From contig PRDJ01000041.1 of assembly GCA_003345555.1 (NCBI GenBank), positions 66,038 through 98,037 on the forward strand: a DNA stretch of 32,000 nt, in the 5' to 3' direction. The notes beneath the pieces are model-generated. The model saw only the letters and a list, made by a program, of their open reading frames with translations. It did not search any database and was not told the DNA's origin. The position numbers and the translations under genes are program-made. Of this stretch, positions 1,643-24,970 are shown one piece after another. This stretch comes from Candidatus Thorarchaeota archaeon. GTDB lineage: Archaea > Asgardarchaeota > Thorarchaeia > Thorarchaeales > Thorarchaeaceae. The first letter of the stretch is position 1, and each line of letters begins with the position of its first letter.

Positions 1643-2713
1643 CTATTTCGAAAGCTTCTGCTTCTCCTTCTCAATCTCTTCGGCGCGCTTCTGCTTCTCC
1701 TTCTCAATCTCTTCGATGCGTTTCTTCTTGGCCTCTTCGGCCTTCTTAATCTGCTTGTCCTTTTCATCGATGCGCTTCTCTGCTACAGACAGCTCCTTCT
1801 TTCTGATGCCTTCTGCATTCTTGTACTCTTTATCCGCATCGTCCCACTCTTTCTTCGCGGAATGGGCCTCGCGCTCTGCGCTGTCAAGACGAGCTCTCTT
1901 TGCATCTGCGACAGCACGATAGCGCTCGACCTCTGCATCGAAACGGACACGCGTCTTATCGAGATCTTGCTCAAGCTGTTGACGCTCGACCACAAAGCGC
2001 CTTATGTCGAACTCGAATTTCCTGGTTTTCTCATCCTTTAGATATTCACTCTCTGCAGCTGAGACTGCTGATGCAGCCACCGAGGAAACGGGCCGCTCGG
2101 CCGCCCTCTCTTCAGGTCGAGAGGGCAATCGCTCTTCGACCAAAGATGCTGCGGGGGTCTCGAATCCTGCCTCTCTCGAAGACGCAGATTCAGCTTTCGC
2201 CTCAGGTGAAGATGGGGCTAGAACCACTGCAGAAGGTTCCGGCTGTGCACCTTTCTCCTTCTTCGCCCGGGCCTCAGCTTCTCTAACCTTCTCAAGAACC
2301 ATTCTGAGAGCCTCTCTTCCTTCCTCGGACTTGACTTCCGGTCCCGCGGCAGTTGCACCTACGCTTGCAGGTGCAAGAGGTTTCTCCTCCACAGAAGCGG
2401 GAGCCTCATCTTTCGCACGTGATTCTGCTACAAGGCCTTCAATTCCAGCTGCCCTAGGCATCCTCTCGCCTTGCTCACCAGGCTGAACGAAACCGCCGGT
2501 CTCCGCGGTGGTCGGCAATTCACCTGCCGCACCTTCTTCAGCTTGCTTAGAGGGTTGGAGACTTGCCCCGGTTACTACGCGTCCAGACTCAGGCACATGA
2601 GATGGTACCTTAGGCTTGGCTGTCTCTGCGGGAGCAAAGAGAGATGCTCCACATCGAACACAGAACTTGCGTGTTACATCATTGGCTCTCCCACATTTTG
2701 GGCACGTTCTCAA
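1643..2713 (-). CDS. Zinc-ribbon protein with long low-complexity linker and highly charged C-terminal helix/coiled coil
   Basis: N-terminal CPKCG-x-CVRCG zinc ribbon, about 200 aa rich in A/E/P/S, and a C-terminal region of about 115 aa dominated by E/K/R. Confidence 0.85.
   Translation of the reverse strand: MRTCPKCGRANDVTRKFCVRCGASLFAPAETAKPKVPSHVPESGRVVTGASLQPSKQAEEGAAGELPTTAETGGFVQPGEQGERMPRAAGIEGLVAESRAKDEAPASVEEKPLAPASVGATAAGPEVKSEEGREALRMVLEKVREAEARAKKEKGAQPEPSAVVLAPSSPEAKAESASSREAGFETPAASLVEERLPSRPEERAAERPVSSVAASAVSAAESEYLKDEKTRKFEFDIRRFVVERQQLEQDLDKTRVRFDAEVERYRAVADAKRARLDSAEREAHSAKKEWDDADKEYKNAEGIRKKELSVAEKRIDEKDKQIKKAEEAKKKRIEEIEKEKQKRAEEIEKEKQKLSK
1654..1715. repeat. 33-bp-period tandem duplication inside the zinc-ribbon/coiled-coil gene
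   Basis: GCTTCTGCTTCTCCTTCTCAATCTCTTCG occurs identically at 1654-1682 and 1687-1715, encoding EEIEKEKQK twice (11-aa period) on the minus strand. Confidence 0.9.
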
Positions 2714-2831: not shown

Positions 2832-3890
2832 CTAGCGCTTCTTGTCCTTCTTGTCCTTTGCTTCCTTCCGAACCCGGACCCCTTTTTGAGAAATGGTAAT
2901 CTCCTGCCTCTCGAGCTTCAGCTTCTTCTCAAGGTCGACTGTCTTGGCACTCGAGACAATCTCCTTTCCGGCTGATTCAGCCAATATTCCTTCGGTGCTT
3001 ACTCGAGTCGTCTTCTTGATAGCTTCCTTCTCAACAACGGTTGCCCCAAGCTTGATGGCCAAGTGTCCCATCTTCCTTCTAATCCGATCTTGAGAATGCT
3101 CGTTCACCACGACGACAGGCACAATGAATGCCATAACGAACAGAGGGACTCCGACGACGAGTGTAAGAGCACCAAGCAGCTCGGGGAGAGTTGGAACAAC
3201 ATCTGCAGCGAAGTATGGGCCATAGATATAGGTCGTGAACATCGTGATTGGGAATGCGATCAGCGCGTAGCCACCGAAGATGTTACTGACCCAGCGACCG
3301 ACCCCCTGCGTGTCGGGACACTGGCGCACTTCGAGCTTGCTGGTCTTGAGGTGGGTCACGATGCCAGAGTCATTCAGCACCCACGTGGGCATGAATATCA
3401 GGAGGGCAATGGGCATGAAAATGAGTGCACTCATTAGAGACAGTGCTGCCTCGCCCAAGAAAGGACTCTCTGGGAACGGTCCGATCGCAAGGTATCCTGC
3501 TATGACTTCACGGAGCATGCTAGCTGAAGCGACACTAAACAGAGCAGGTGCAGCAGCCCTTCGAATTATGTGCCTGCCTGCAAACACCGGACCGATATTC
3601 ATGATGTTCATCTCGTAGGATGCGGCTTTCACAGCTCGGTTGACGAACAGAAACATGGACGCGATGGGAACGGCAAACAGGAAGTACTCAGCAAACAGCA
3701 CTGGCAGCGAGATGCCAAGCAGAAGAACAATGAAGCTTGGCATCGTCAGGCCCATGATAGACATCGTGCTCCCAGATGGTAGACCAACCGTAACTAGGTA
3801 TATGATCTGGAGAGCGGATCCTCCTATGACTAGGCAAAACAAAGCAGGCAACACATATCTTCCTTTGCTCAGAACCACTTGAATCTCCAA
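2832..3890 (-). CDS. Uncharacterised polytopic membrane protein with basic C-terminal tail
   Basis: 352-aa ORF (TTG start) with about 6-7 hydrophobic segments and a K/R-rich soluble C-terminus. No family motif recognised. Confidence 0.75.
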   Translation of the reverse strand: MEIQVVLSKGRYVLPALFCLVIGGSALQIIYLVTVGLPSGSTMSIMGLTMPSFIVLLLGISLPVLFAEYFLFAVPIASMFLFVNRAVKAASYEMNIMNIGPVFAGRHIIRRAAAPALFSVASASMLREVIAGYLAIGPFPESPFLGEAALSLMSALIFMPIALLIFMPTWVLNDSGIVTHLKTSKLEVRQCPDTQGVGRWVSNIFGGYALIAFPITMFTTYIYGPYFAADVVPTLPELLGALTLVVGVPLFVMAFIVPVVVVNEHSQDRIRRKMGHLAIKLGATVVEKEAIKKTTRVSTEGILAESAGKEIVSSAKTVDLEKKLKLERQEITISQKGVRVRKEAKDKKDKKR

Positions 3891-10444: not shown

Positions 10445-12748
10445 ATGAGGCACATTGGCAGGAAGATTCTCCCAGGGTTATTGGTGCCGCTCTTCCTCAT
10501 TCTGGGGTCTTTTGTGGCTCCAGGAGCGGCGCTTCAGGCCAGTTCAATAATTGAGGAATATAACCAGGCCATAGCGCCCGGACCTAATAATCATACATAC
10601 ATATTCAGCAAACCAGACCCGATCGATTTTGCGTCCTCGAGCAGGATGTACGTAAATGAAGACCTAGACTATTTTGTCTACTCATATGATACCACGGGAT
10701 GGACTAGGTCGGCCAGCTCATTGACTGCTCCCAGCAGTCCGCAGTTCGACTGGCAAGATTATTCTGAATGGACCAACGGCGCGTTTGGCAACCCGGCAAC
10801 GATGCCACTCTTCTTCGACTTCATTGGCAGCGACGGAAGTGGTGCTGTCATCAACACAACCTTAGAGCGAAGATCTTTCGTTCTGACTATTAACCAGCAC
10901 ACGCCCATTGTCATGGATGGCGGCTTTGTCTCTTATGGGGCTCTGGCGATAAGCGGTCAGGAGTTCGTGAACCTGATAGTCAACTGTCGCCAAGATGTCG
11001 TGTCATGGGGTGCAGTGGTTGCCGACCCAGTTGGCAGGCTTGTGAACTCCGTTAGCGGTACTGGAGGCGACATACTCGTAGTCCCGTTCAGGCCCGCAAT
11101 GGCTGGCAACTACATCGTAGTGCTCCGAGCGGATAATGCACCGGGTACTTCCGCACTCTTTGATCTGTACCCTATTGCGGCGTCGGTCACAACAATCCCC
11201 TTTGGGGAAGTAATACAGGGAACACTTCCGACTGGCGAACTCATTGTCAGTAGTTCGGGCAGCTTAGTGCACCAAGAGATGGCACCCACCGTGAACACCT
11301 ACAAGGTGACGTCTCCGGACAATCTGGCATCGGTGACATATGCGTTCAACTACCCTGAAGTGTCGACCGGCGTTCCACAAATAACCGGCATTCAGTTTAC
11401 GAGGGATGCATATGAGTACGACACCAACGGCGGGATTCAGTACGTGCGTGGTTCCATCTCCCCGAATACTGCGGAGTTCTTCTATACAGGAGGACCCCTC
11501 TATGTGACAGTCTACGGTGGAGATAACGTTGAGTACACTCTCTACCATAAGGACAACGGTGCCGCGAACCTGCCGTTGAATAAAGAATTCCTACTCGAGA
11601 ATGAATACGGTGTTACAATTCAGAAAGCCTACCGACTGCATGCGGAGCAGGACTCGCTCTTGAAGGCCAACTCCACTGGCGTTGGAGCTGACTATGATAT
11701 CTCGGTGCTTGGAGTCAACGAGGATGGGTTCTTCAAGACTCAGACCATAACGGACGGTGCTACAATTGAAGGGTCTACGGCATACTTCCTCCGAGCAGGG
11801 GACTACGTAGTAGTGATTAACATTGCTTCTACTACATCAGAGTACATTGAGTTCAGTCTCGGCGAGATAGTCGCTGATAGCTTGACGGCCGACTTGATGC
11901 GTCTTGGAGGCTTTAGGGTCCCAACAAACCCGTGTGAGCTCTACAACCTGACGCTACACCTCGACACTCTCGACAACATCACGGTGACTGTCCAGATTGC
12001 GGCCTACACCAAATTCTACCAGTCTGTTTGGAGTACAAGTCTCACTCTTGCTAACCGATGGGACGGAACCCACTGGGTGCCACACCCGACCTATAACAAT
12101 TGGTCGACATTTCTCCCGGGTCGCACCTGGTCAGAGGGCTATTCCTACTTGACCATATCCTTCCGCGTGTACAACAACACGGGAGCACTGGCTGAGTATG
12201 CTAATCACCCAGTGAGGTTCACCGTCGATTGGAACGAGTACACCAATGAATGGTATGACGGACACGCAACGATGGACATCAGAAGTGCAGCGGCCATAAG
12301 CAATCTGACTCTAGAGTATCCAGGTACGAGCCCTAACTACATCGCACTAAGACTAGACACGACGGCCGGGACATGGTACAACGTCTCAGTGAGGACAGCC
12401 GATGTGTCATCATTCACGGCTATTCTCTACAGCCTCTATGATTCTAGGACCCATTCTACCCCTTGGGCGGACCTTGATGACGATCTAGTGGGTTCAATAC
12501 CCTACCTGTCATTCCAGTTTGGGGCTATCTCCGAGTATGCGATTCTCCATATCCAGTTGGGGCGGACACTAGCAGCAACAGGGTTCCTCTGGATTGAGAT
12601 AACTCCACTAGAGAGTCACACACTGGGCTGGCTACCGCCTCTGAGTGCACCTGGACCGAACATCCTAGCAATGCTAGCATTGCCAGTTTCATTGGGTGCC
12701 ATTGCCGTTGTGGCCATATACGTCGTTTACGTCAAGAAGATAAAGTAG
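10445..12748 (+). CDS. Large secreted, C-terminally membrane-anchored cell-surface protein
   Basis: 767 aa. Signal peptide MRHIGRKILPGLLVPLFLILGSFVAPGAALQA. Body is beta-strand-like, rich in S/T/Y/G/N, with several N-x-S/T sequons. C-terminal TM helix followed by KKIK. No catalytic motif recognised. Confidence 0.88.
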   Translation: MRHIGRKILPGLLVPLFLILGSFVAPGAALQASSIIEEYNQAIAPGPNNHTYIFSKPDPIDFASSSRMYVNEDLDYFVYSYDTTGWTRSASSLTAPSSPQFDWQDYSEWTNGAFGNPATMPLFFDFIGSDGSGAVINTTLERRSFVLTINQHTPIVMDGGFVSYGALAISGQEFVNLIVNCRQDVVSWGAVVADPVGRLVNSVSGTGGDILVVPFRPAMAGNYIVVLRADNAPGTSALFDLYPIAASVTTIPFGEVIQGTLPTGELIVSSSGSLVHQEMAPTVNTYKVTSPDNLASVTYAFNYPEVSTGVPQITGIQFTRDAYEYDTNGGIQYVRGSISPNTAEFFYTGGPLYVTVYGGDNVEYTLYHKDNGAANLPLNKEFLLENEYGVTIQKAYRLHAEQDSLLKANSTGVGADYDISVLGVNEDGFFKTQTITDGATIEGSTAYFLRAGDYVVVINIASTTSEYIEFSLGEIVADSLTADLMRLGGFRVPTNPCELYNLTLHLDTLDNITVTVQIAAYTKFYQSVWSTSLTLANRWDGTHWVPHPTYNNWSTFLPGRTWSEGYSYLTISFRVYNNTGALAEYANHPVRFTVDWNEYTNEWYDGHATMDIRSAAAISNLTLEYPGTSPNYIALRLDTTAGTWYNVSVRTADVSSFTAILYSLYDSRTHSTPWADLDDDLVGSIPYLSFQFGAISEYAILHIQLGRTLAATGFLWIEITPLESHTLGWLPPLSAPGPNILAMLALPVSLGAIAVVAIYVVYVKKIK

Positions 12749-12966: not shown

Positions 12967-13581
12967 CTATGCCTTGCTTTCATTCTTGAGAGGAAGCTTA
13001 GGCTCCTGAACCAGTCTCATCCTATCATCCATCTCAATCATCAGGCGGGTCAGTTTTGTAAATGCTTCGCGGATGTTCTGACCCGTCACAGCGGATGTCT
13101 CCTCGAAAACCACGGGGACTGTGAGCTTCTCACTGAAGAATTGGGCGAACTTGTGGCCCTCATCATTTGTTACATTCTTCTCGAAGGGATTATCCTGTCT
13201 CAAATCTGTCTTGTTTGCCAACACCGCCGTTGGCGGAAGCTTGCCCATGTACTTGTACGCCTCCACAAGCCATTTCGAGGCGTTATCAAAGCTTTCGCGG
13301 TCAACCACAGAGTACACCAAGATTATGCCGCTGGAGCCAACGTAGTAGTGTCGCCGCACCTTCTCGAATGTGGGTTGACCTGCCAAGTCCCATATAATGA
13401 GACGAATGTTAACGCCATCGAGGTCAAAACGTGTCTGGGCAAAATCGACTCCGATGGTTGGCATGTGACTTGTGATAAAACCCTCCCCAAGATACACCCT
13501 ACGCAAGCTCGTTTTTCCTACCGCCCCGTCGCCAATTAGGACTACCTTGAATGTTCTATTGCCTGCGGCTTCGAATGTCAA
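12967..13581 (-). CDS. Rab-like small GTPase (Ras superfamily)
   Basis: G1 GDGAVGKT, G2 PTIGVDF, G3 WDLAGQ, G4 NKTD, G5 ETSA. Probable TTG start at 13581 behind an AAGGAG SD (the track ORF starts at 13650). No C-terminal cysteine. Confidence 0.95.
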   Translation of the reverse strand: MTFEAAGNRTFKVVLIGDGAVGKTSLRRVYLGEGFITSHMPTIGVDFAQTRFDLDGVNIRLIIWDLAGQPTFEKVRRHYYVGSSGIILVYSVVDRESFDNASKWLVEAYKYMGKLPPTAVLANKTDLRQDNPFEKNVTNDEGHKFAQFFSEKLTVPVVFEETSAVTGQNIREAFTKLTRLMIEMDDRMRLVQEPKLPLKNESKA

Positions 13582-13825
13582 GGGGGAGCGTCTCCTTAGG
13601 CTCTGTGGTGTACTCGTACATTCCTTATTAGAGCTCTCGTATGACATCAAAGGGACCGGCTACGTGAATGCCAGTCCAGTTCGACCACTCTGATCACAAA
13701 ACGTCCTATATTCCCATTTCTGCTTTGAACCAATCCTTCATAGGTCACCTTTGGATGCTCGTAACGCGGGACGCCATTCACCTGTCAATCGTGGGATTGA
13801 ACCGACCGATACTGAGGAAAGAACA

Positions 13826-14968: not shown

Positions 14969-16948
14969 ATGGCAGGTTTCAAGCTGGTTGCCCCGTTCAA
15001 ACTCACAGGAGATCAGCCCGACGCGGTGCAGAAGCTCGTGGAGGGCCTGAACAGTGGGCTTCAGCAACAAACTCTGCTCGGAGTCACTGGATCCGGTAAG
15101 ACCTTCGTGATGGCCAATGTCATAGCTCACTACCAGAAGCCGACCATCGTCATCTCTCACAACAAGATACTTGCGGCACAGCTCGCCGCTGAGTATCGAC
15201 AGTTCTTCCCCGAGGATGCGGTGGAATACTTCGTCTCATACTATGACTATTACCAGCCAGAGGCATATGTCCCGACTAAGGACATGTACATTGAGAAGGA
15301 GACAGACATCAACGAAGAAATCGAGAAGCTTCGTAATTCCACGACTCGTTCTCTCAAGACCCGCAATGATGTTGTAGTCGTAGCTTCTGTGTCCTGTATC
15401 TACAACCTCGGCGACCCTAGGGAGTATGATGAGCTAGCTCTGACGCTAGAGGTGGGTCAGGAGATCGAGAGGCGTACGCTGCTCGAGAAACTGATATCGA
15501 TGCAATACGAGCGCAACGATATGGAACTCAAGGCGGGCATCTTCCGCGTTCGCGGCGATGTAATTGATATTCATCCCGGTTACGAGTCAGAGACAGTAAG
15601 GCTCCAACTCGATGGCGACAGAATAGACCGAATCTCTATAGTTGACTCTCTGACATCCCATCGGATATTCGAGGAGCGTGGCATAGATATCTGGCCTGCG
15701 AAGCATCACGTTGCACGCCATGAGAAGACCTTGGCCGCCCTCGACTCGATTAAGGCAGAGATGGAGCAACGCGTTGAGTGGTTCAAGAAGCAGGGGAAGG
15801 TTGTCGAGGCAGACCGCCTCCGCCGAAGGACACTCTATGACATCGAGATGCTCCGACAGACCGGGTCTTGCGAAGGTGTTGAGAACTACTCCCGACACAT
15901 AGATGCCAGAAAGCAGGGTGAAAAGCCCTACTGTCTCCTCGATTACTTCCCAGAGGACTTCCTGATGATCATCGATGAAAGCCATATGACCATTCCGCAA
16001 CTTGAGGGGATGTATCACGGTGACATATCGCGTAAGCAGAGCCTTGTCGACTATGGTTTTCGGCTACCCTCTGCGTTTGACAATCGTCCATTGAAGTTCG
16101 ACGAGTTCAAGGGTTACATGAAACACGTAATCTGCACGAGCGCAACACCGGGACCATACGAAAGAAAGTCAAGCAATCAGATTGTCGAACTGCTCCTGAG
16201 ACCGACTGGTCTCATTGATCCGGAGATAACAGTAAAGCCCGTTGAGAATCAGGTCGACGATTTGTTGGCTGAGATAGGGAAAACAACGGCGAGACATGAG
16301 AGAGTGCTAGTGACAACGCTCACGAAGAAGACCGCGGAGATGCTTTCTGAGTATCTTGTGGAATCAGGCGTCAAGGCTAGGTACCTCCACTCTGACATTA
16401 AGACAGTCGAGCGCATAGAAATCATCCGTGACTTGCGTCTCGGCAGGTTCGACGTGCTCGTGGGCATCAACCTGCTAAGGGAAGGACTCGACCTCCCAGA
16501 AGTCTCTCTTGTGGCCATTCTTGATGCCGACAAGGAGGGTTTTCTGAGAAGTGAGTGGGCACTCATCCAGACAATGGGGCGTGCTGCAAGGAATGTCAAT
16601 GGCCGGGTCATACTCTACGGGGATCACATCTCGGCTGCCATGCAAGCCGCCATAAACGAGACCAACCGACGCAGGGAGTACCAGCTGCGATACAACGAGC
16701 AACACGGTATCACGCCCAAGACCATAGTGAAATCAGTATACGATATTGCCGAGCGCATCCCATCGAAGAAGAAACCCGAGCAGGCGAAGATAGCTGACTT
16801 CGATTTCGTGGATATTGAAAGCATCACAGAGTTGATTGTCAATCTTGAGGAAGATATGAAGGAAGCAGCAAGGAACCTTGAGTTTGAACGAGCGGCGGAA
16901 CTGCGAGACCAGATTCGTGAACTGCAGTCGAAGATTGAAGGGCGGTAG
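14969..16948 (+). CDS. uvrB: Excinuclease ABC subunit B
   Basis: [27 protein letters not shown] beta-hairpin, [29 protein letters not shown], and a C-terminal UVR domain. ATG 14969 is preferred over track start 14945. Confidence 0.98.
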
Positions 16949-16951
16949 TGT

Positions 16952-19876
16952 ATGGCATCAAGTTCTAAGTCTCGTGCGAAGAGCGTGCGGCTGGATACGG
17001 AAGGTCCACAGGACATCGTTATCCGTGGAGCCGCAGAACACAACCTCAAGCACATCGACCTGCAGATACCTCGCAACAAGCTTACTGTTGTTACAGGAGT
17101 CTCCGGCTCGGGCAAGTCGAGTTTAGTATTCGATACCATATTCGCAGAAGGACAGCGCCGTTTCGTGGAGTCGCTTTCGCCCTATGCTCGACAGTTCCTT
17201 GGCATGCTTGAGAAGCCCAAGGTGGACTACATGTCAGGGCTGTCTCCTTCAATCTCAATCGACCAGAAGAGTGCTGGTCACAATCCTAGGAGCACAGTCG
17301 GCACTATCACTGAGATCTACGATTTCTTGAGGCTCCTGTTTGCCCGTGTTGGAGTGCCCCATTGCCCAAAGTGTGGCAAGAAGATTGAACCCCAGACTGC
17401 GCAGCAGATTGTCGACAGGGTTCTTGCTCTTGGAGAGGGGACAAGCATCGCCATCATGGCACCAATCGTCCGAGAAAGAAAAGGAGAATACAGGAAGGAG
17501 TTCCGTGACCTACTTGAGAAGGGGTTCGTCAGAGTACGTGTTGACGGAGAACTGAAAGACATCGAAGAGGGCACGTCGCTAGACCGATACTACAAGCACA
17601 CAATTGAGGTTGTAATAGACCGCCTCAAGGTATCTGATTCCCAGAGAGCAAGAATATCGGAAGCGGTAGAAACCGCCCTCACGATGGCTGATAGAGTGGT
17701 GACGATTGCTGCAGACTCAGGCGACCTCACACTTTCGGAGAAGTTTGCATGTGTAGATTGCGGCATCAGCCTTCCCGAAATGGAACCACGCCTATTCTCA
17801 TGGAACACTCCACACGGGGCGTGTCCAACCTGCACCGGGCTCGGGGTCATCAGAGAGATAGACACAAAGCTTGTAGTGTCAGATGATTCGCTCTCAATCT
17901 CTCAAGGAGCAATCGCACCCTACAATTGGATGTCTAAGTCTACAACGATCAAGGCGGTTGCCAATAGGTATGGATTCTCCATGGACACTCCCTGGAGAGA
18001 TCTAACTCCAGATCAGAAGGACAAGATACTCTGGGGAACAGGTGACGAAGAAATCAAGATTGACTGGCACTGGGGAGACGATCCCGCGAAAACCCAGTGG
18101 GAAGGGACAACGGTCGCTCCATTTCGCGGCGTGATTGCTCAAATGGAACGGAACTACAAGTCAACCAAGTCAAACTACATCCGCGAGTGGCTTGAGCATT
18201 TCATGGTAGACCATGAGTGCTCGGTATGCAAGGGCTTGCGGCTTCGACCCGAGTCGACTGCCGTGAAGTTCAGAGATCTCTCGATAACCGATGTGAACAG
18301 TATGTCCATCAAGGACCTATCCGAGTTCTTCCAATCCGTGGTCCTGTCGCCGCGAGAAGAACCAATTGCCCATCCAATCATCAAGGAGATAATGGGAAGG
18401 TTGGGTTTCTTGATGGAGGTCGGCCTCGACTACCTGACACTCGATCGGTCTGCACCGTCACTCGCCGGAGGAGAAGCACAAAGAATCCGACTAGCGAGCC
18501 AGATTGGCTCCAATCTTGTGGGAGTGACCTACGTATGTGACGAGCCTTCTATTGGGCTTCATCAACGTGATAACCTCAGGCTTCTGCGCTCATTGAAGAG
18601 CCTACGAGACATAGGAAACACAGTGGTTGTAGTCGAGCATGATGAGTCCACTATGAGAGCCGCTGACTACCTTGTTGACCTCGGACCCGGGGCCGGCGAT
18701 GAAGGCGGTCGAGTTGTTGTTGCGGGAAAGGTCGATGATGTGCTTGCATCGAAGAAATCGTTAACCGCCAAATATCTTCGAGGCGATGAGAAGATACCAG
18801 TGCCTGCTGTTCGAAGACAACCGAACGGCAGATTCATTGAGATAAAGGGTGCCCGGCATCACAACCTCAAGTCCATAGACGTTAAGATTCCTCTCGGACT
18901 CTTCGTTTGTGTCACGGGCGTATCGGGCAGTGGAAAGTCGAGCCTGATAGACGAGACGCTTCAGAGAGAGCTAGCAAGGAGGTTCTACAATGCTACAGCC
19001 ACACCCGGTGAGTGCGATGCCATTATTGGTGCTGAACAACTCGACAAGGTCATTATCATTGATCAGAGCCCGATTGGTCGCACACCAAGATCTAACCCCG
19101 CGACCTACGTAAGCCTGTTCTCGGACATTCGAGACCTCTTCTCAGGCTTGCCCGAGGCGAAGATCAGAGGTTACAAACCGGGTAGGTTCAGCTTCAATGT
19201 GAAAGGCGGGCGGTGCGAAAAGTGCAGGGGTGCAGGTGTTGAAGTCATAGAGATGCAGTTCCTCCCACCTGTTGAGGTCACCTGCGCTGAATGCAAGGGG
19301 CGACGATACAACAGAGAGACACTTCAGGTCCGCTACAAGGGCAAGAACATAGCCGACGTCCTTGCAATGAGAACAGACGAAGCACTTGACTTCTTCGCAG
19401 ACTTACCATCAATTCATCGCAAGCTGAAGACACTCTACGAGGTGGGCATGGGCTATGTTCAACTGGGCCAGCCCGCGACGACACTGAGTGGCGGAGAGGC
19501 ACAAAGAATCAAACTAAGCAAGTTCCTTTCGCGGCCCGCCACCGGTCAGACTCTGCTCCTCCTCGACGAACCGACGACCGGGCTCCATTTTGCAGACATC
19601 AAGAAGCTGCTTGAGGTTCTTCATAGGCTTGTGGACTTGGGCAATACAGTGCTCGTTGTGGAGCATCAGCTCGATGTTGTGAAGACCGCGGACTGGGTGA
19701 TTGATTTGGGCCCTGAGGGCGGCGACGAGGGCGGCTACCTCATCGCAGAAGGTACTCCAGAGCAAGTGGCTGAACGCGAGAACTCATACACTGGGAAGTA
19801 CCTCAGAGGGGTGCTTCACGAGGCGAGACCAGAAGCTGCAGTCCAAAGAAGCGGCACGAGGAGGAAGAAGCCATGA
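16952..19876 (+). CDS. uvrA: Excinuclease ABC subunit A, copy 1 (full length)
   Basis: Two Walker A motifs (GVSGSGKSS twice), signatures LAGGEAQR and [16 protein letters not shown] and DEPTTGLH, three zinc modules, UvrB-binding domain and insertion domain. Confidence 0.98.
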   Translation: MASSSKSRAKSVRLDTEGPQDIVIRGAAEHNLKHIDLQIPRNKLTVVTGVSGSGKSSLVFDTIFAEGQRRFVESLSPYARQFLGMLEKPKVDYMSGLSPSISIDQKSAGHNPRSTVGTITEIYDFLRLLFARVGVPHCPKCGKKIEPQTAQQIVDRVLALGEGTSIAIMAPIVRERKGEYRKEFRDLLEKGFVRVRVDGELKDIEEGTSLDRYYKHTIEVVIDRLKVSDSQRARISEAVETALTMADRVVTIAADSGDLTLSEKFACVDCGISLPEMEPRLFSWNTPHGACPTCTGLGVIREIDTKLVVSDDSLSISQGAIAPYNWMSKSTTIKAVANRYGFSMDTPWRDLTPDQKDKILWGTGDEEIKIDWHWGDDPAKTQWEGTTVAPFRGVIAQMERNYKSTKSNYIREWLEHFMVDHECSVCKGLRLRPESTAVKFRDLSITDVNSMSIKDLSEFFQSVVLSPREEPIAHPIIKEIMGRLGFLMEVGLDYLTLDRSAPSLAGGEAQRIRLASQIGSNLVGVTYVCDEPSIGLHQRDNLRLLRSLKSLRDIGNTVVVVEHDESTMRAADYLVDLGPGAGDEGGRVVVAGKVDDVLASKKSLTAKYLRGDEKIPVPAVRRQPNGRFIEIKGARHHNLKSIDVKIPLGLFVCVTGVSGSGKSSLIDETLQRELARRFYNATATPGECDAIIGAEQLDKVIIIDQSPIGRTPRSNPATYVSLFSDIRDLFSGLPEAKIRGYKPGRFSFNVKGGRCEKCRGAGVEVIEMQFLPPVEVTCAECKGRRYNRETLQVRYKGKNIADVLAMRTDEALDFFADLPSIHRKLKTLYEVGMGYVQLGQPATTLSGGEAQRIKLSKFLSRPATGQTLLLLDEPTTGLHFADIKKLLEVLHRLVDLGNTVLVVEHQLDVVKTADWVIDLGPEGGDEGGYLIAEGTPEQVAERENSYTGKYLRGVLHEARPEAAVQRSGTRRKKP

Positions 19877-22752
19877 CGGGCTACATCAAGGTCCGAGGCG
19901 CCTCTGAGCACAACCTGAAGGGTATCGACGTCGACATCCCGAGAGACAGGCTCGTTGTCGTCACGGGACCCTCAGGTTCGGGGAAATCCAGTCTTGTCTT
20001 TGATACCATCTTTGCCGAAGGTCAGAGGAGATATGTTGAATCACTCTCATCATATGCCAGGAGGTTTCTGGGTCGACTCGATAAGCCGAGAGTTGAGTCA
20101 ATCACAGGCTTGCCACCCGCAATCTCAATTGAGCAGAAAGGGGGAACCAAGAACCCCAGAAGCACGGTTGGAACCAGTACCGAGATTCACGACTATCTAC
20201 GACTTCTGTTTGCCAACATAGGCATCCCGCACTGCCTCAAGTGTGGTGCCGCTATGGAACAACTCACTGCGGATTCGGCTGCAACACTTCTGCTTCAGGA
20301 GAATGGTGGCAAGAGAATCGTGGTTCTCGCCCCGGTCGCGAGAGAAGAGCCAGGAAAACTAGAGGATACGCTCCAGCATCTGACCGAGAACGGTTTCACG
20401 CGAGTCAGGGTCGACGGGGAGATTCGAGAACTTGAAGGACTAGAACTGGACGGCCGCAAGAAGCACAATGTGGACGTAGTCGTTGATAGAGTCGAGCTGG
20501 GCGAGAAGAGCAGAGAAAGACTGGTCGGTTCCATTGAGACTGCTCTAGAGTCAGGGCAGGGTTCGGCAGTCATAGCTCGGGAAGGGGAGCAGGATATAGT
20601 ATTCGCAGAGAAACTCATGTGCCCACACTGCGGTATTCAATACGAAAAGCTCGAACCCAAGGCTTTCTCGTACAACACTCCTGCTGGCGCATGTCCGGCC
20701 TGCAACGGTCTCGGTGCCACAATCAGCATCGATCCGGAGAAGATTGTTCCAAATAAGATACTCAGTCTAACAGATGGTGCCCTGAAGCCATGGGCCGGGT
20801 CTCAACAGTCATGGCCGTATCGCTTGCTTGAAGCTCTATCTGCAGAAGCGAACTTCTCCCTTGACACGCTGTGGAGCAAGCTTCCAGAGTCCGTTCACGA
20901 CCTCATAATGTGGGGTCGTCCGCCACTCAGAGTGAAGTTCTCCTATCAGCAGATTGACTACAAGGGACGACTTCAAACAGTAAACGTGACCCGCACTTGG
21001 GAGGGCATGGTACCTAGATTTGAGAGGCACCTTCGCGGAAGACTATCCGAAGAGACCAAAGAGAAGATCATCAGTCTATACTCAAGCAGGAAGGTCTGTG
21101 CAGCATGTGGTGGCAAGAAACTTCGACCGGAAAGTCTCGCAGTGACAGTTGCAGGAAAGACAATCGACAGCGTAACCTCAATGACAATCGAAGATGCTCT
21201 CGACTTCTTCAAGAATATCGAACTGACAGAGCGGGAGCACAAGATTGCTGGACTCATCCTGAAAGAGATCGTGTCCCGTTTATCATTCATAGTATCAGTC
21301 GGACTTGACTATCTCAACCTTGACCGTCCATCGATGACACTCTCGGGCGGAGAATCACAGAGAATCCGTTTGGCGACTCAGATTGGGTCTGCGTTGACGG
21401 GAGTACTCTACTGCTTGGATGAGCCCTCGGTCGGTCTGCACCCTCGCGATATTTCACGGCTGCTTGTCACTCTGATTCGACTGAGGAGCCTTGGCAACAC
21501 GGTTGTAGTAATCGAACACGACCGTGACACAATCAATGCGGCAGACTACGTTGTGGACTTGGGTCCGGGAGCCGGCGTCCACGGAGGAAAGCTAGTCGCA
21601 TGCGGCACTCCTGAAGAAGTGCTCTCGAGTCCGAAATCACTCACTGCCCTCTATCTCGCAGGCAAGAAGCAGATACCAGTGCCCAAGACGAGAAGGGCGG
21701 GTAGCGGAAAGTCAGTAGTCGTAAGGGGAGCCCGTCAGAACAACCTGAGAAACATAGACGTTGCATTTCCACTTGGGAGATTCATCTGTGTCACGGGAGT
21801 CTCTGGCAGTGGTAAGAGTACGCTCGTCCACGAGACACTATACAAAGCCTTGGCCCAAGTCATGGGTTCCTCCACGGAGACACCTGGTGACCATGACGGG
21901 ATTGACGGAGCCGAGAACATTGACCGTCTAATACTGGTGGACCAGTCTCCCATTGGACGAACTCCTCGGTCAAACCCTGCAACCTACACAAAGGTCTTCG
22001 ATGAGATTCGCAAGCTCTTTGCACTGACTCCCGAGGCAAAGGCGAGAGGCTACACGGCAGGCAGGTTCAGCTTCAACACGAGAGCCGGCAGATGTGAGAA
22101 GTGCCAAGGCAGTGGGCTTCTTCGAGTCGAGATGCACTTCATGACCGATGTCTACATCACCTGCGACGTGTGCAACGGTAATCGCTTTGACAGAGAGACA
22201 CTCGAGGTGAAATACAAAGGCAGGAACATAACTGAGGTTCTCAGGATGAATATCGAGGAGGCACTGGGATTCTTCCAAGACATTCCGCAGGTGGCCGACA
22301 GGCTGCAGACACTCGCTGATGTTGGTCTTGGATACGTCGAACTCGGCCAGCCCGCGACCACGCTCAGCGGAGGCGAGGCACAAAGGGTTAAGCTTGCAGC
22401 AGAACTCTCGCGCAGAAACACAGGGTCTACCCTATACATACTTGACGAGCCTACAACCGGCCTCTCAGCATCAGACGTGGATGTGCTCCTCAAGGTCTTG
22501 AATCGGCTTGTCGACTCTGGCAACACTGTCATCGTCATCGAGCACAACCAAGAAGTCATAAAGACTGCAGACTGGGTGATTGATTTGGGTCCCGAAGGTG
22601 GGGTCAAGGGTGGTACCTTGGTTGCCGCAGGAACGCCAGAAGAGGTCTCATCAGTACCCGAGTCTTTCACTGGGCAGCATCTCAAAAGCGCTCTTTCAGG
22701 TCCCAAAGTGCGTCACAGTGTAGTTACCACACTGCCGCCTCCAAAGACCTGA
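19873..22752 (+). CDS. uvrA: Excinuclease ABC subunit A, copy 2 (full length, diverged paralogue)
   Basis: GPSGSGKSS and [17 protein letters not shown] and [16 protein letters not shown] and DEPTTGLS, all three zinc modules, both inserted domains. Overlaps copy 1 by ATGA. Confidence 0.97.
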
Positions 22753-22802
22753 TTTATCACTGACTGCATCGCAATATCAGCTGACGAACGGAGATTCTCG
22801 AT

Positions 22803-24614
22803 GTGTCCGATCTTGCCAAACTGGTTGGTGACCTTCCTGAGCTTCCAGGGGTGTACCTCTGGAAGGATGAAGCAGGCAAGATCATTTACATTGGAAAAGC
22901 CAAGTCACTTCGGAAACGTGTTAGCTCATATCTCAGCAGAAAGGAATTGGACTCAAAGACTGAAGATCTCATGAACCATGCCCGTGACCTTGAGACGATA
23001 GTGACTAACAACGAGCTTGAGGCTGTGATACTCGAGTCAACACTCATCAAGCAACATATGCCAAAATACAACATCGCACTGAAGGACGATCGAAGGCATG
23101 CTTGGATACGTGTTGACCTCAACAAGGAGTATCCAGTGTTTGAGGTGACTCGCGATGTCGCAAAGGACGGGGCCAACTACTACGGGCCCTATGGAAGCAC
23201 AAGGCGGCTCGACAGATTCCTAGATTCAGCTCGTAAGTTCATTCCTATTGCTATGTGCAAGAGCCCAGAAGCTGTCAAGAGGGAGTGCACAGATTACTAC
23301 CTTGGTAGATGTGCGGGACCTTGCAAAGAGCATGTCCCAAGAGAAGAATACAGATCCATGGTCGAACAGATGCGTCTGTACCTTGAGGGAAAGGAAGCCC
23401 AGCTGACTCAAGCAGTCAAGAAGGAGATGGACAAAGCTGCTAACAACCTCGAGTTCGAGAGAGCTGCCAGACTCAGAGATCGGCTCAAGGACATAGAGAT
23501 AGTCATGAGGAAACAGAAAGTCTTCGACGTCGCCGAAATTGACAAAGACGTTCTTGGAATATCCAGAACCGAACAGGCTGCTCTCGTTGAGATGCTCATC
23601 ATTAGGACGGGAAGGCTTGTTGGCACAGACCATTTCTATTTCGAACTGAGCATGGATACGACGGATTCGGAAGTCCTCTCTTCATTTGTAAAGCAGTTCT
23701 ACTTCAAACTCCCTCAGGTCCCTGATGAGATACTCGTGCCGGTCGAAATACCTGAAATGGAACAGCTTGGCGATTGGCTTAGTCAAAACAGGGCCGTGCC
23801 CATTAAGCTGTATCTGCCCGCTGAGGGTAAAGCGAACGAACTCGTCAAGATGGCAAACGCAAACGCCACGAGAAGCCTACGGAGGATACTCGTTCTTGGA
23901 GACCGGGACGAAGACATTGTTGACGAGGGCGTCAAACAGCTCAAGGAAGCTCTGGGACTCACTCGCGCGCCGTTCCACATAGAAGGCTTCGACATTGCTA
24001 ACATTCAGGGAACCGACCCGACCGGTTCATGTGTGGTCTTCGTCAACGGTCAAGCCGCAAATAGCAGCTACCGGATGTTCAGGGTACGCGTGAAAGAGAC
24101 CCCCGATGATTATGCCATGATGTCAGAAGTGGTGCTGAGAAGGTATAGAGGCGTCCTTGAAGAGGGCGGTGTCATCCCTGATTTGATAATGGTCGACGGA
24201 GGAAAGGGCCAGCTAAGTGCGGCGCTCAAGGCTCTTGATCAGCTCGGACTCGAATACCTCCCAGTTGCGGCTCTTGCAAAGAAAGAGGAGATCATCTATA
24301 CTCAAGACAACATGGACGGAATTGCTCTCCCGCCTGAGTCGCAAGGCCTGCGATTGATTGAAAGTATACGAGACGAGGCACACCGATTTGCGCAACGATA
24401 CCATCACATCCTGAGAGAGAAGAGATTCACGGGTTCGATACTGGAGGAGGCGCCGGGGATTGGACCGAAGAGGAGAGCCGCCTTGCTCAATGCATTCGGC
24501 AGCTACGAAAAGGTCAGGTCAGCGAGTGTAGAGGAACTGGCGAAAGTTGAGGGGATGTCGCAAAAGACCGCAGAAGCACTCAAGGAGTGGCTTGACAAGG
24601 ACGAAATTGCCTAG
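22803..24614 (+). CDS. uvrC: Excinuclease ABC subunit C
   Basis: GIY-YIG domain (PGVYLW...IYIGKAKSLRKRV), four-Cys region, UVR domain, RNase H-like domain (FDIAN, PDDY, VDGGKGQL, RDEAHRFA) and C-terminal HhH2 (PGIGPKR). Confidence 0.98.
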   Translation: MSDLAKLVGDLPELPGVYLWKDEAGKIIYIGKAKSLRKRVSSYLSRKELDSKTEDLMNHARDLETIVTNNELEAVILESTLIKQHMPKYNIALKDDRRHAWIRVDLNKEYPVFEVTRDVAKDGANYYGPYGSTRRLDRFLDSARKFIPIAMCKSPEAVKRECTDYYLGRCAGPCKEHVPREEYRSMVEQMRLYLEGKEAQLTQAVKKEMDKAANNLEFERAARLRDRLKDIEIVMRKQKVFDVAEIDKDVLGISRTEQAALVEMLIIRTGRLVGTDHFYFELSMDTTDSEVLSSFVKQFYFKLPQVPDEILVPVEIPEMEQLGDWLSQNRAVPIKLYLPAEGKANELVKMANANATRSLRRILVLGDRDEDIVDEGVKQLKEALGLTRAPFHIEGFDIANIQGTDPTGSCVVFVNGQAANSSYRMFRVRVKETPDDYAMMSEVVLRRYRGVLEEGGVIPDLIMVDGGKGQLSAALKALDQLGLEYLPVAALAKKEEIIYTQDNMDGIALPPESQGLRLIESIRDEAHRFAQRYHHILREKRFTGSILEEAPGIGPKRRAALLNAFGSYEKVRSASVEELAKVEGMSQKTAEALKEWLDKDEIA

Positions 24615-24679: not shown

Positions 24680-24970
24680 GTGAGGGTCTTCGTAGGAGTC
24701 AAAACGGAACTCGGTCGTGCGTATCAGGTTAGAGAACGTGTTCGCAAGCTCAGAGGCGTGAAGTGTGCATGCACGATCTACAGGGGTCCATATGATGTGA
24801 TTATCACAGTTGACGTTCCAGACTTGAAAGACTTCGAGACCCTCGCCCTATACGAGCTTCCTCGCATTCAGGGTGTTCTGGACTATGAATCGTTTCTCAC
24901 GGCAAGCCCTGATGACAAAGAGGAAGCAGGATGGACTCCGGATCCCATTTTCTCGCCGTCAAAGAAGTAG
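24680..24970 (+). CDS. Stand-alone Lrp/AsnC ligand-binding (RAM) domain protein
   Basis: 96 aa with a beta-alpha-beta-beta-alpha-beta pattern, GPYDVII motif and LPRIQGV...ESF ending. No N-terminal HTH. Confidence 0.8.
   Translation: MRVFVGVKTELGRAYQVRERVRKLRGVKCACTIYRGPYDVIITVDVPDLKDFETLALYELPRIQGVLDYESFLTASPDDKEEAGWTPDPIFSPSKK

Follow-up and report, generated by a model that had tools for sequence, protein, structure and literature searches.

Can the damage sensor of nucleotide-excision repair be assembled from two different UvrA proteins instead of two copies of the same one? Textbooks describe UvrA as a homodimeric damage sensor. The division of tasks between its two protomers and among their four ATPase sites, and the number of UvrB molecules that are loaded (one or two), are still debated (PMC11985968, PMC7835731). 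The question is raised by a stretch of 32,000 nucleotides from Candidatus Thorarchaeota archaeon (contig PRDJ01000041.1, positions 66,038 to 98,037), referred to as the window, in which two complete uvrA genes, uvrA1 and uvrA2, lie next to each other between uvrB and uvrC. The best reading of this locus, and one that we regard as probable, is that the encoded proteins, A1 and A2, pair as a heterodimer, which would be the split counterpart of the fused double UvrAs, in which two UvrA units (N-unit and C-unit, or N-half and C-half) are present in one polypeptide.

Organization of the operon

The UvrABC operon in the window is complete, with uvrB, uvrA and uvrC genes all present and all intact, and the open reading frame (ORF) calls and translations show that uvrB, uvrA1, uvrA2 and uvrC are co-directional. 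uvrB (14969..16948, + strand) encodes 659 amino acids between an ATG start and a TAG stop, with the Pfam domain UvrB_inter at residues 158-246. After a spacer of 3 bases (tgt) it is followed by uvrA1 (16952..19876, +; 974 amino acids, ATG start, TGA stop at 19874-19876), which encodes the more canonical of the two class I UvrA units, and then by uvrA2 (19873..22752, +; 959 amino acids, ATG start, TGA stop), which encodes the diverged unit. uvrC (22803..24614, +; 603 amino acids, GTG start, TAG stop) is separated from uvrA2 by 50 bases, and GGAG is situated 9 nucleotides 5' of its GTG start. At the junction between the two uvrA genes (19858..19876, +), GAGGAGGA is followed by 7 nucleotides and then by ATGA, in which the start of uvrA2 overlaps the stop of uvrA1. 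The start of uvrA2 is in a different frame from uvrA1, and a real TGA separates the two units. The gene layout of a preliminary description, namely two full-length UvrAs joined by an ATGA overlap with spacers of 3 and 50 nucleotides on either side, agrees to the base with the ORF calls and junction sequences.

A1 and A2 are only 52% identical over 939 residues and are therefore no assembly duplicate. The identical DNA is also present in wetland metagenome runs of two studies. A single match to uvrB and a single match to uvrC are found in the whole assembly.

Domain architecture and class of A1 and A2

UvrB reaches 1010 bits with NCBIfam NF003673 (equivalog cut-off 743), and UvrC reaches 528 bits with TIGR00194 (cut-off 285). 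The scores of A1 and A2 are 1422 and 1372 bits with NCBIfam NF001503 (cut-off 1147), and 1350 and 1310 bits with TIGR00630 (cut-off 730). The UvrB-binding domain (Pfam PF17760, UvrA_inter) comprises residues 148-254 of A1 (17393..17713, +; 123 bits) and residues 134-236 of A2 (20272..20580, +; 94 bits); the fold is kept in A2 and the RKGEY motif is degenerate. The insertion domain (Pfam UvrA_DNA-bind, PF17755) is above the cut-off in both proteins, at residues 304-415 of A1 and 287-399 of A2. Both proteins contain three zinc modules, and each has two Walker A, two signature, two Walker B and two H-loop motifs together with six CxxC pairs. The residues of these ATPase motifs and all six CxxC pairs are invariant across 103 A2 orthologues, and the same set of ATPase and zinc motifs is present in every A1. 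The statement that both UvrAs keep two ATPase domains, three zinc modules, the insertion domain and the UvrB-binding domain is thereby borne out by the Pfam, NCBIfam and motif tables. A1 further retains RKGEY in the UvrB-binding domain and YARQF in the wedge.

The insertion domains are the most diverged part of the two proteins, with 25% identity between A1 and A2. Identity to single UvrAs is 35% for A2 vs 42% for A1 in the UvrB-binding domain, and 26% vs 33% in the insertion domain. Within each clade, per-domain conservation is similar for A1 and A2.

Comparison with the canonical class I UvrA homodimers (E. coli; G. stearothermophilus, 2R6F/3UWX; T. maritima, 3PIH; M. tuberculosis, 3ZQJ; Ct-UvrA, 9GXK) reveals that A1 and A2 agree with them in length, in the order of domains and in motifs, share ~50% identity with the solved UvrAs, and are likewise encoded in an operon with uvrB and uvrC. 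The differences are that Thorarchaeia possess two distinct genes, co-retained throughout the class, and that A2 has Arg for Gln65, Pro for Ser82, Ser for the D-loop His in its second ATPase module (module II), and an RKGEY motif that has degenerated. Class II UvrAs have neither zinc module 1 nor a UvrB-binding domain; they function independently of UvrB and UvrC, and their genes are found outside the uvr operon (PMC9328131). The earlier remark that second copies in bacteria are mostly of this kind, without the UvrB-binding domain and outside the core uvr locus, is in line with that literature. Neither A1 nor A2 belongs to class II. What the pair shares with the class II paralogues (D. radiodurans UvrA2, 2VF7; DrrC; Ecm16, 7SH1) is the presence of a second UvrA-family gene beside a canonical copy; in contrast to them, A2 possesses both zinc module 1 and a UvrB-binding domain, and its gene is part of the operon.

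Docking of UvrB by A2

RKGEY is kept in A1, single UvrAs and N-units, and is degenerate in A2 and C-units. The degenerate motif raised the possibility that A2 has lost UvrB docking, which was rejected on the basis of a predicted complex between UvrB 150-255 (domain 2) and A2 118-256. The complex passes with a score of 0.62, compared to 0.02 for the best control, the mark being one that 58 of 80 solved complexes and 2 of 110 mismatched pairs reach. The runs share at least 97% of contacts, and the predicted local distance difference test (pLDDT) value of the partner is at least 84. Because a similar complex has been solved (3FPN, 3UWX), the pass indicates likeness to it and may reflect its memorization by the prediction model. 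The predicted interface on A2 is made up of residues 148, 151, 171-176, 188, 204-208 and 215-223, which are invariant among A2 proteins, and the RKGEY-equivalent motif (155-163) is outside it. A1 and A2 both appear to be still able to dock the single UvrB.

Distribution of the pair

The distribution of the two genes was surveyed in 87 genomes of the class Thorarchaeia and in 16 sampled Asgard genomes outside the class. The A1-A2 pair is present throughout Thorarchaeia and is a defining trait of the class. In ~49 of the 87 genomes, full-length A1 and A2 lie next to each other on one contig, and contig ends or incompleteness account for the genomes with no visible pair. No A1 inside a contig and without a neighbouring A2 was seen in the 87 genomes. 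The pair occurs in almost all members of the source family and in the sole genome of the sister family (G025), and more than 100 A2 orthologue clusters, almost all labelled Thorarchaeota, were found. Outside the class, 9 of the 16 Asgard genomes have a single UvrA, one has a fused double of 1916 amino acids (G028, Heimdallarchaeaceae), and 6 are without UvrA.

The order uvrB-A1-A2-uvrC is kept in every fetched locus that spans all four genes. No junction in the operon is tighter than that between A1 and A2: among 20 loci, 17 have a 4-nucleotide overlap, one has a 1-nucleotide overlap, and two have a short gap. The distance between A2 and uvrC, by comparison, ranges from an overlap to 1.3 kb. 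We also note a metagenome-assembled genome (MAG) of the same genus (L112, G003:C4:340000-353000), in which uvrB, A1 and A2 are each broken by stops or frameshifts and are yet 92-93% identical to the genes of the window; these interruptions are probably sequencing error and not decay.

Selection on the two copies

The ratio of nonsynonymous to synonymous substitution rates (dN/dS) could be estimated from two genome pairs with usable dS, the remaining pairs being saturated. It amounts to 0.035-0.042 for A1, 0.033-0.038 for A2, 0.039-0.049 for uvrB and 0.034-0.059 for uvrC. The preliminary description had held that a heterodimer would be called into question if the pair were confined to the source genome or if A2 were under relaxed selection. 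The synteny survey places the pair throughout the class, and purifying selection on A2 is as strong as on A1, uvrB and uvrC. These results, like the separate clades described below, speak for a genuine pair that has been retained jointly.

Phylogeny and origin of A1 and A2

A careful maximum-likelihood tree was built with LG+C20 and posterior mean site frequencies (PMSF) from 66 rows. In this tree, A1 (support 100/99) and A2 (98/97) form separate clades, each of which contains the sister family, a second family of the order; the UvrA trees thus agree with the suggestion that the two copies are old and distinct. A1 is placed within a clade (95/92) of Asgard single UvrAs and N-halves of fused doubles, and A2 is placed outside that clade. 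The grouping of A1 with the N-halves, which include those of Heimdallarchaeia, has a support of 95 in the quick tree by the Shimodaira-Hasegawa-like approximate likelihood ratio test (SH-aLRT), of 85/78 in the careful tree, and of 88/89 without the UvrB-binding domain.

A simple in-lineage duplication giving rise to both A1 and A2 is disfavoured by these sequence comparisons. In a four-tree approximately unbiased (AU) test on all columns, the constraint of A1 and A2 to one clade results in a log-likelihood difference of 56.7 (p 0.006). Without the columns of the UvrB-binding domain the penalty is 33.9 (p 0.069), and the duplication therefore retains some probability. The quick tree search was poor, as it missed a tree that is better by 47 log-likelihood units, and its AU p of 0.375 is superseded. 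A single clade of A2 and the C-halves is favoured with all columns and is tentative, since the grouping is lost once the UvrB-binding domain is removed.

In one fused double from a Joint Genome Institute (JGI) metagenome (P0005, 2334 amino acids), the two halves are sisters, i.e., they derive from an independent duplication. The second half of P0005 has gained GPSGSGK and lost RKGEY, as in A2 and other C-halves, and these changes point to a recurrent evolutionary path. The single UvrA of the Bacteroidales loci L039, L040 and L100 is without the cysteines of zinc module 1 and without RKGEY; its location near A2 and the C-halves in the all-column trees may be due to these motif losses.

Residues at the dimer axis and in the second ATPase module

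The dimer interface of Ct-UvrA is formed by Tyr55, Phe66, Ser82 to Ile85, and residues 507-510 (PMC12796330). ATP-binding-I, the interface domain, is discontinuous in sequence. Its dimer contacts include Tyr55-Tyr55, Phe66-Phe66 and Ser58-Ile85, while Gly80, Leu81 and Pro83 contact residues 507-510 across the dimer, and an additional contact between Tyr55 and Ser82 is made with adenylyl imidodiphosphate (AMPPNP) (PMC12796330). Gln65, Tyr62 and Phe66 are reported to penetrate the DNA helix at its centre (PMC12796330). Numbering was transferred through alignment to PDB 9gxk, in which the Ct-UvrA number equals the A2 number + 1 and the A1 number - 16; positions 55, 65, 82, 84 and 508 below are those of Ct-UvrA.

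Arg64 of A2 (20062..20064, +), in the motif YARRF, corresponds to Gln65, the helix-inserting residue at the dimer axis. Arg is found at position 65 in 103 of 103 A2 orthologues, and likewise in the sister family. Of 74 bacterial single UvrAs that have the motif, 73 carry Gln there, as do the Asgard single UvrAs and the solved structures. No Arg at this position was observed among the single UvrAs sampled, which are few and mostly from Bacteroidales. In the fused doubles with two readable motifs, the wedge residues are QQ in 38, QR in 16, RQ in 1 and RR in 0. The fused P0016 and P0018 have Phe55 and Gln65 in the N-unit, and Tyr55, Arg65 and Thr508 in the C-unit, the same pairing as in A1 and A2.

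Pro81 of A2 (20113..20115, +) corresponds to Ser82, the dimer-interface residue in contact with Tyr55. Position 82 is Pro in all A2 proteins, the sister family included; A1 and the single UvrAs of Asgard archaea have Ser there. On the other protomer, Phe71 of A1 (17162..17164, +) corresponds to Tyr55, which makes the self-contact at the dimer axis. A1 of the source family has Phe at position 55 (13 of 13) and Ser at position 84, and A1 of the sister family has Tyr at position 55. Ser865 of A2 (22465..22467, +) lies in the second ATPase module, at the position of the D-loop, where GLS is present vs the usual GLH. Among the 103 A2 orthologues, this position is Ser in 101, Ala in 2 and His in none; it is His in A1, single UvrAs and most fused halves. 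The equivalence of the UvrA His to the D-loop Asp of ATP-binding cassette (ABC) ATPases follows from our own motif alignment.

Relation to fused double-length UvrAs

Among 1.8 billion representatives, A2 is matched most strongly by proteins that are 1800-2340 amino acids long and have two full UvrA units. Fused double UvrAs are numerous, their taxa including Heimdallarchaeota and Chloroflexota, and they are widely annotated as 'excinuclease ABC subunit A'. The fused two-unit form has been reported for Planctomycetes (PMC8567305). The view that the arrangement had not been described accordingly needs qualification: the fused form is on record, and for the split form with two genes our literature search returned no paper.

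Both systems contain two different full-length UvrA units, the fused proteins fixing a 1:1 stoichiometry, and the gene order A1-A2 parallels the order of N-half and C-half. As in A2, the C-unit tends toward loss of RKGEY, gain of GPSGSGK and, in a subset, Arg in the wedge. Within the fused proteins the N-unit always gives the better match to the UvrB-binding domain, and two of the five proteins scanned have only one match. The locus in the window differs from a fused double in that A1 and A2 are separate polypeptides, with a real stop codon and a separate ribosome-binding site, and this split is kept in 20 loci. A2 also retains both CxxC pairs of zinc module 1, in contrast to several C-units that have lost them.

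Other UvrA-family genes of unusual form were encountered. The source genome contains a third one outside the window (G000 contig C17, L138:3852-8711, -), a fused double of 1619 amino acids that is also found in relatives. Its first unit has a weak match to the UvrB-binding domain and no insertion domain, and its second unit has a weak match to the insertion domain and no UvrB-binding domain. An extra, very divergent full-length UvrA is encoded elsewhere in some Thorarchaeia (G008:C5:71951-74713, L136; G017:C50:3334-6096, L137; and ~13 other genomes) and is absent from the source genome. This protein scores ~1100 bits and sits on a long branch; YARQF is replaced by TSRTM, and zinc module 1 no longer has its second CxxC pair. 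A Pirellulaceae MAG (L038:1698-9002) contains a UvrA ORF of 2429 amino acids, which exceeds the length of a plain double.

The putative A1-A2 heterodimer and its alternatives

The heterodimer is favoured because A1 and A2 are co-retained throughout the class, their overlap is conserved, both are under equal purifying selection, and a single UvrB and a single UvrC are available to them. It is further favoured by the kinship of A1 to the N-units and by the location of the fixed changes of A2 on residues of the dimer axis and the wedge; outside A2, this wedge change was encountered solely in two-unit proteins, where one of the two units has it. The gene layout, conservation, selection, phylogeny and residue patterns are shown directly, and from them we infer the pairing of A1 with A2 and how the two might share their tasks.

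The damage sensor is encoded by two old and distinct class I UvrA genes within the nucleotide-excision-repair operon. In the proposed mechanism, the stop/start overlap would lead to co-production of A1 and A2 in roughly equal amounts, and the two would assemble mainly as a heterodimer, the two-gene counterpart of the fused doubles of Heimdallarchaeia, Chloroflexota, Planctomycetota and others. A1 would be the near-canonical unit of this dimer. A2 would place Arg where the DNA-inserted Gln normally sits at the dimer axis, and would add Pro at the neighbouring interface position and, in its second ATPase module, Ser at the D-loop position; therefore, the probing wedge and the ATPase cycle would be asymmetric. 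The single UvrB would dock on either unit and then recruit the single UvrC. Whether Thorarchaeia go further and possess an obligate, asymmetric UvrA heterodimer with different jobs for its protomers, the fused doubles being its covalent version, we judge to be an even matter. In such an obligate heterodimer the protomers would differ in how they probe DNA and pass it to UvrB.

Several observations weigh against pairing. A1 and A2 each keep everything that a homodimeric UvrA needs, and since both proteins are complete, homodimers or a mixture retain some probability. The operon equally explains the co-expression of two separate sensors. A2 together with the C-halves is the best tree found with all columns, and without the UvrB-binding domain A2 drops into a polytomy. 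The sister halves of P0005 with the same second-unit changes imply that the likeness between A2 and the C-halves is possibly convergent. The single UvrAs in the Gln/Arg count at position 65, few and mostly of one order, are not independent. The zero count of RR in the fused doubles was dropped as evidence, as the count expected under independence is below 1 and the comparison has no statistical power. The A1-side changes, Phe55 and Ser84, are conservative and absent from the A1 of the sister family. To our knowledge, fused double UvrAs have never been studied biochemically.

If A1 and A2 were two separate homodimeric sensors, A1-A1 and A2-A2, they would use the same UvrB and UvrC for different lesion classes or DNA contexts, and the operon would serve co-regulation. 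This fits the full class I motif set and UvrB-binding domain of both copies, the UvrB docking still predicted for A2, and the fact that the DNA-contacting insertion domains are the most diverged (25% identity). It leaves unexplained, however, why, of all junctions in the operon, the stop/start overlap is conserved best, why neither gene is found alone anywhere in the class, and why the fixed changes of A2 are located on dimer-axis residues, with the wedge Arg otherwise confined to one unit of fused two-unit proteins. An A2 homodimer would also set two Arg residues beside the Phe66-Phe66 contact, which we expect to be unfavourable. We consider separate homodimers unlikely.

A mixed population of A1-A1, A2-A2 and A1-A2, all active in repair over a wider lesion range and with no strict pairing, is in our estimate quite improbable. 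A1 and A2 have most of the ATP-binding-I interface in common, A1 is near-canonical at every interface position, and nothing seen forbids its self-pairing. The objections to separate homodimers nevertheless apply here too, more weakly, and the class-wide translational coupling together with the covalent 1:1 fused forms suggests that selection maintains a 1:1 mixed species. Most of the second UvrA copies known in bacteria are accessory proteins (PMC9328131), and A2, which evolves faster than A1 in the UvrB-binding and insertion domains, might on that precedent be a UvrA-like protein outside excision repair that resides in the operon by history, like class II UvrA2, DrrC and Ecm16 in drug resistance or clearance of DNA adducts. 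Such a role is very hard to reconcile with a protein that has the zinc module 1 and UvrB-binding domain missing from class II, is above the class I equivalog cut-off, has a conserved UvrB-docking surface and a predicted UvrB complex that passes, and sits between uvrA1 and uvrC in every relative; we give it hardly any weight.

Neighbouring genes in the window

A Ras-family small GTPase, typical of Asgard archaea, is encoded at 12967-13650 (-; Pfam Ras, E 3e-41). Directly 3' of uvrC, a protein of 95 amino acids (24683-24970, +) has an Lrp/AsnC ligand-binding domain as its sole domain. The long ORFs at 10445-12748 (+), 1643-2713 (-) and 2832-3890 (-), of 767, 356 and 352 amino acids, are without a Pfam match at E 1e-5.

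Implications for UvrA function

A natural UvrA with two distinct protomers would allow each protomer to be mutated separately, which is not cleanly doable in a homodimer. Through the A1-A2 pair, the fused double UvrAs are connected to a form with two genes that can be tested. The differences between A1 and A2 fall on positions that were shown in 2025 to form the dimer axis or to enter the DNA, and this provides specific targets for residue swaps. MutS is a homodimer in bacteria, whereas eukaryotes have the MSH2-MSH6 heterodimer. In both cases a symmetric ABC-type damage sensor would have been replaced by two paralogues, one of which has the lesion-contacting residue; MutS and MSH belong to another protein family, and the likeness is one of analogy only. 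If true, an obligate A1-A2 heterodimer in Thorarchaeia would parallel the change from the MutS homodimer to the MSH heterodimer.

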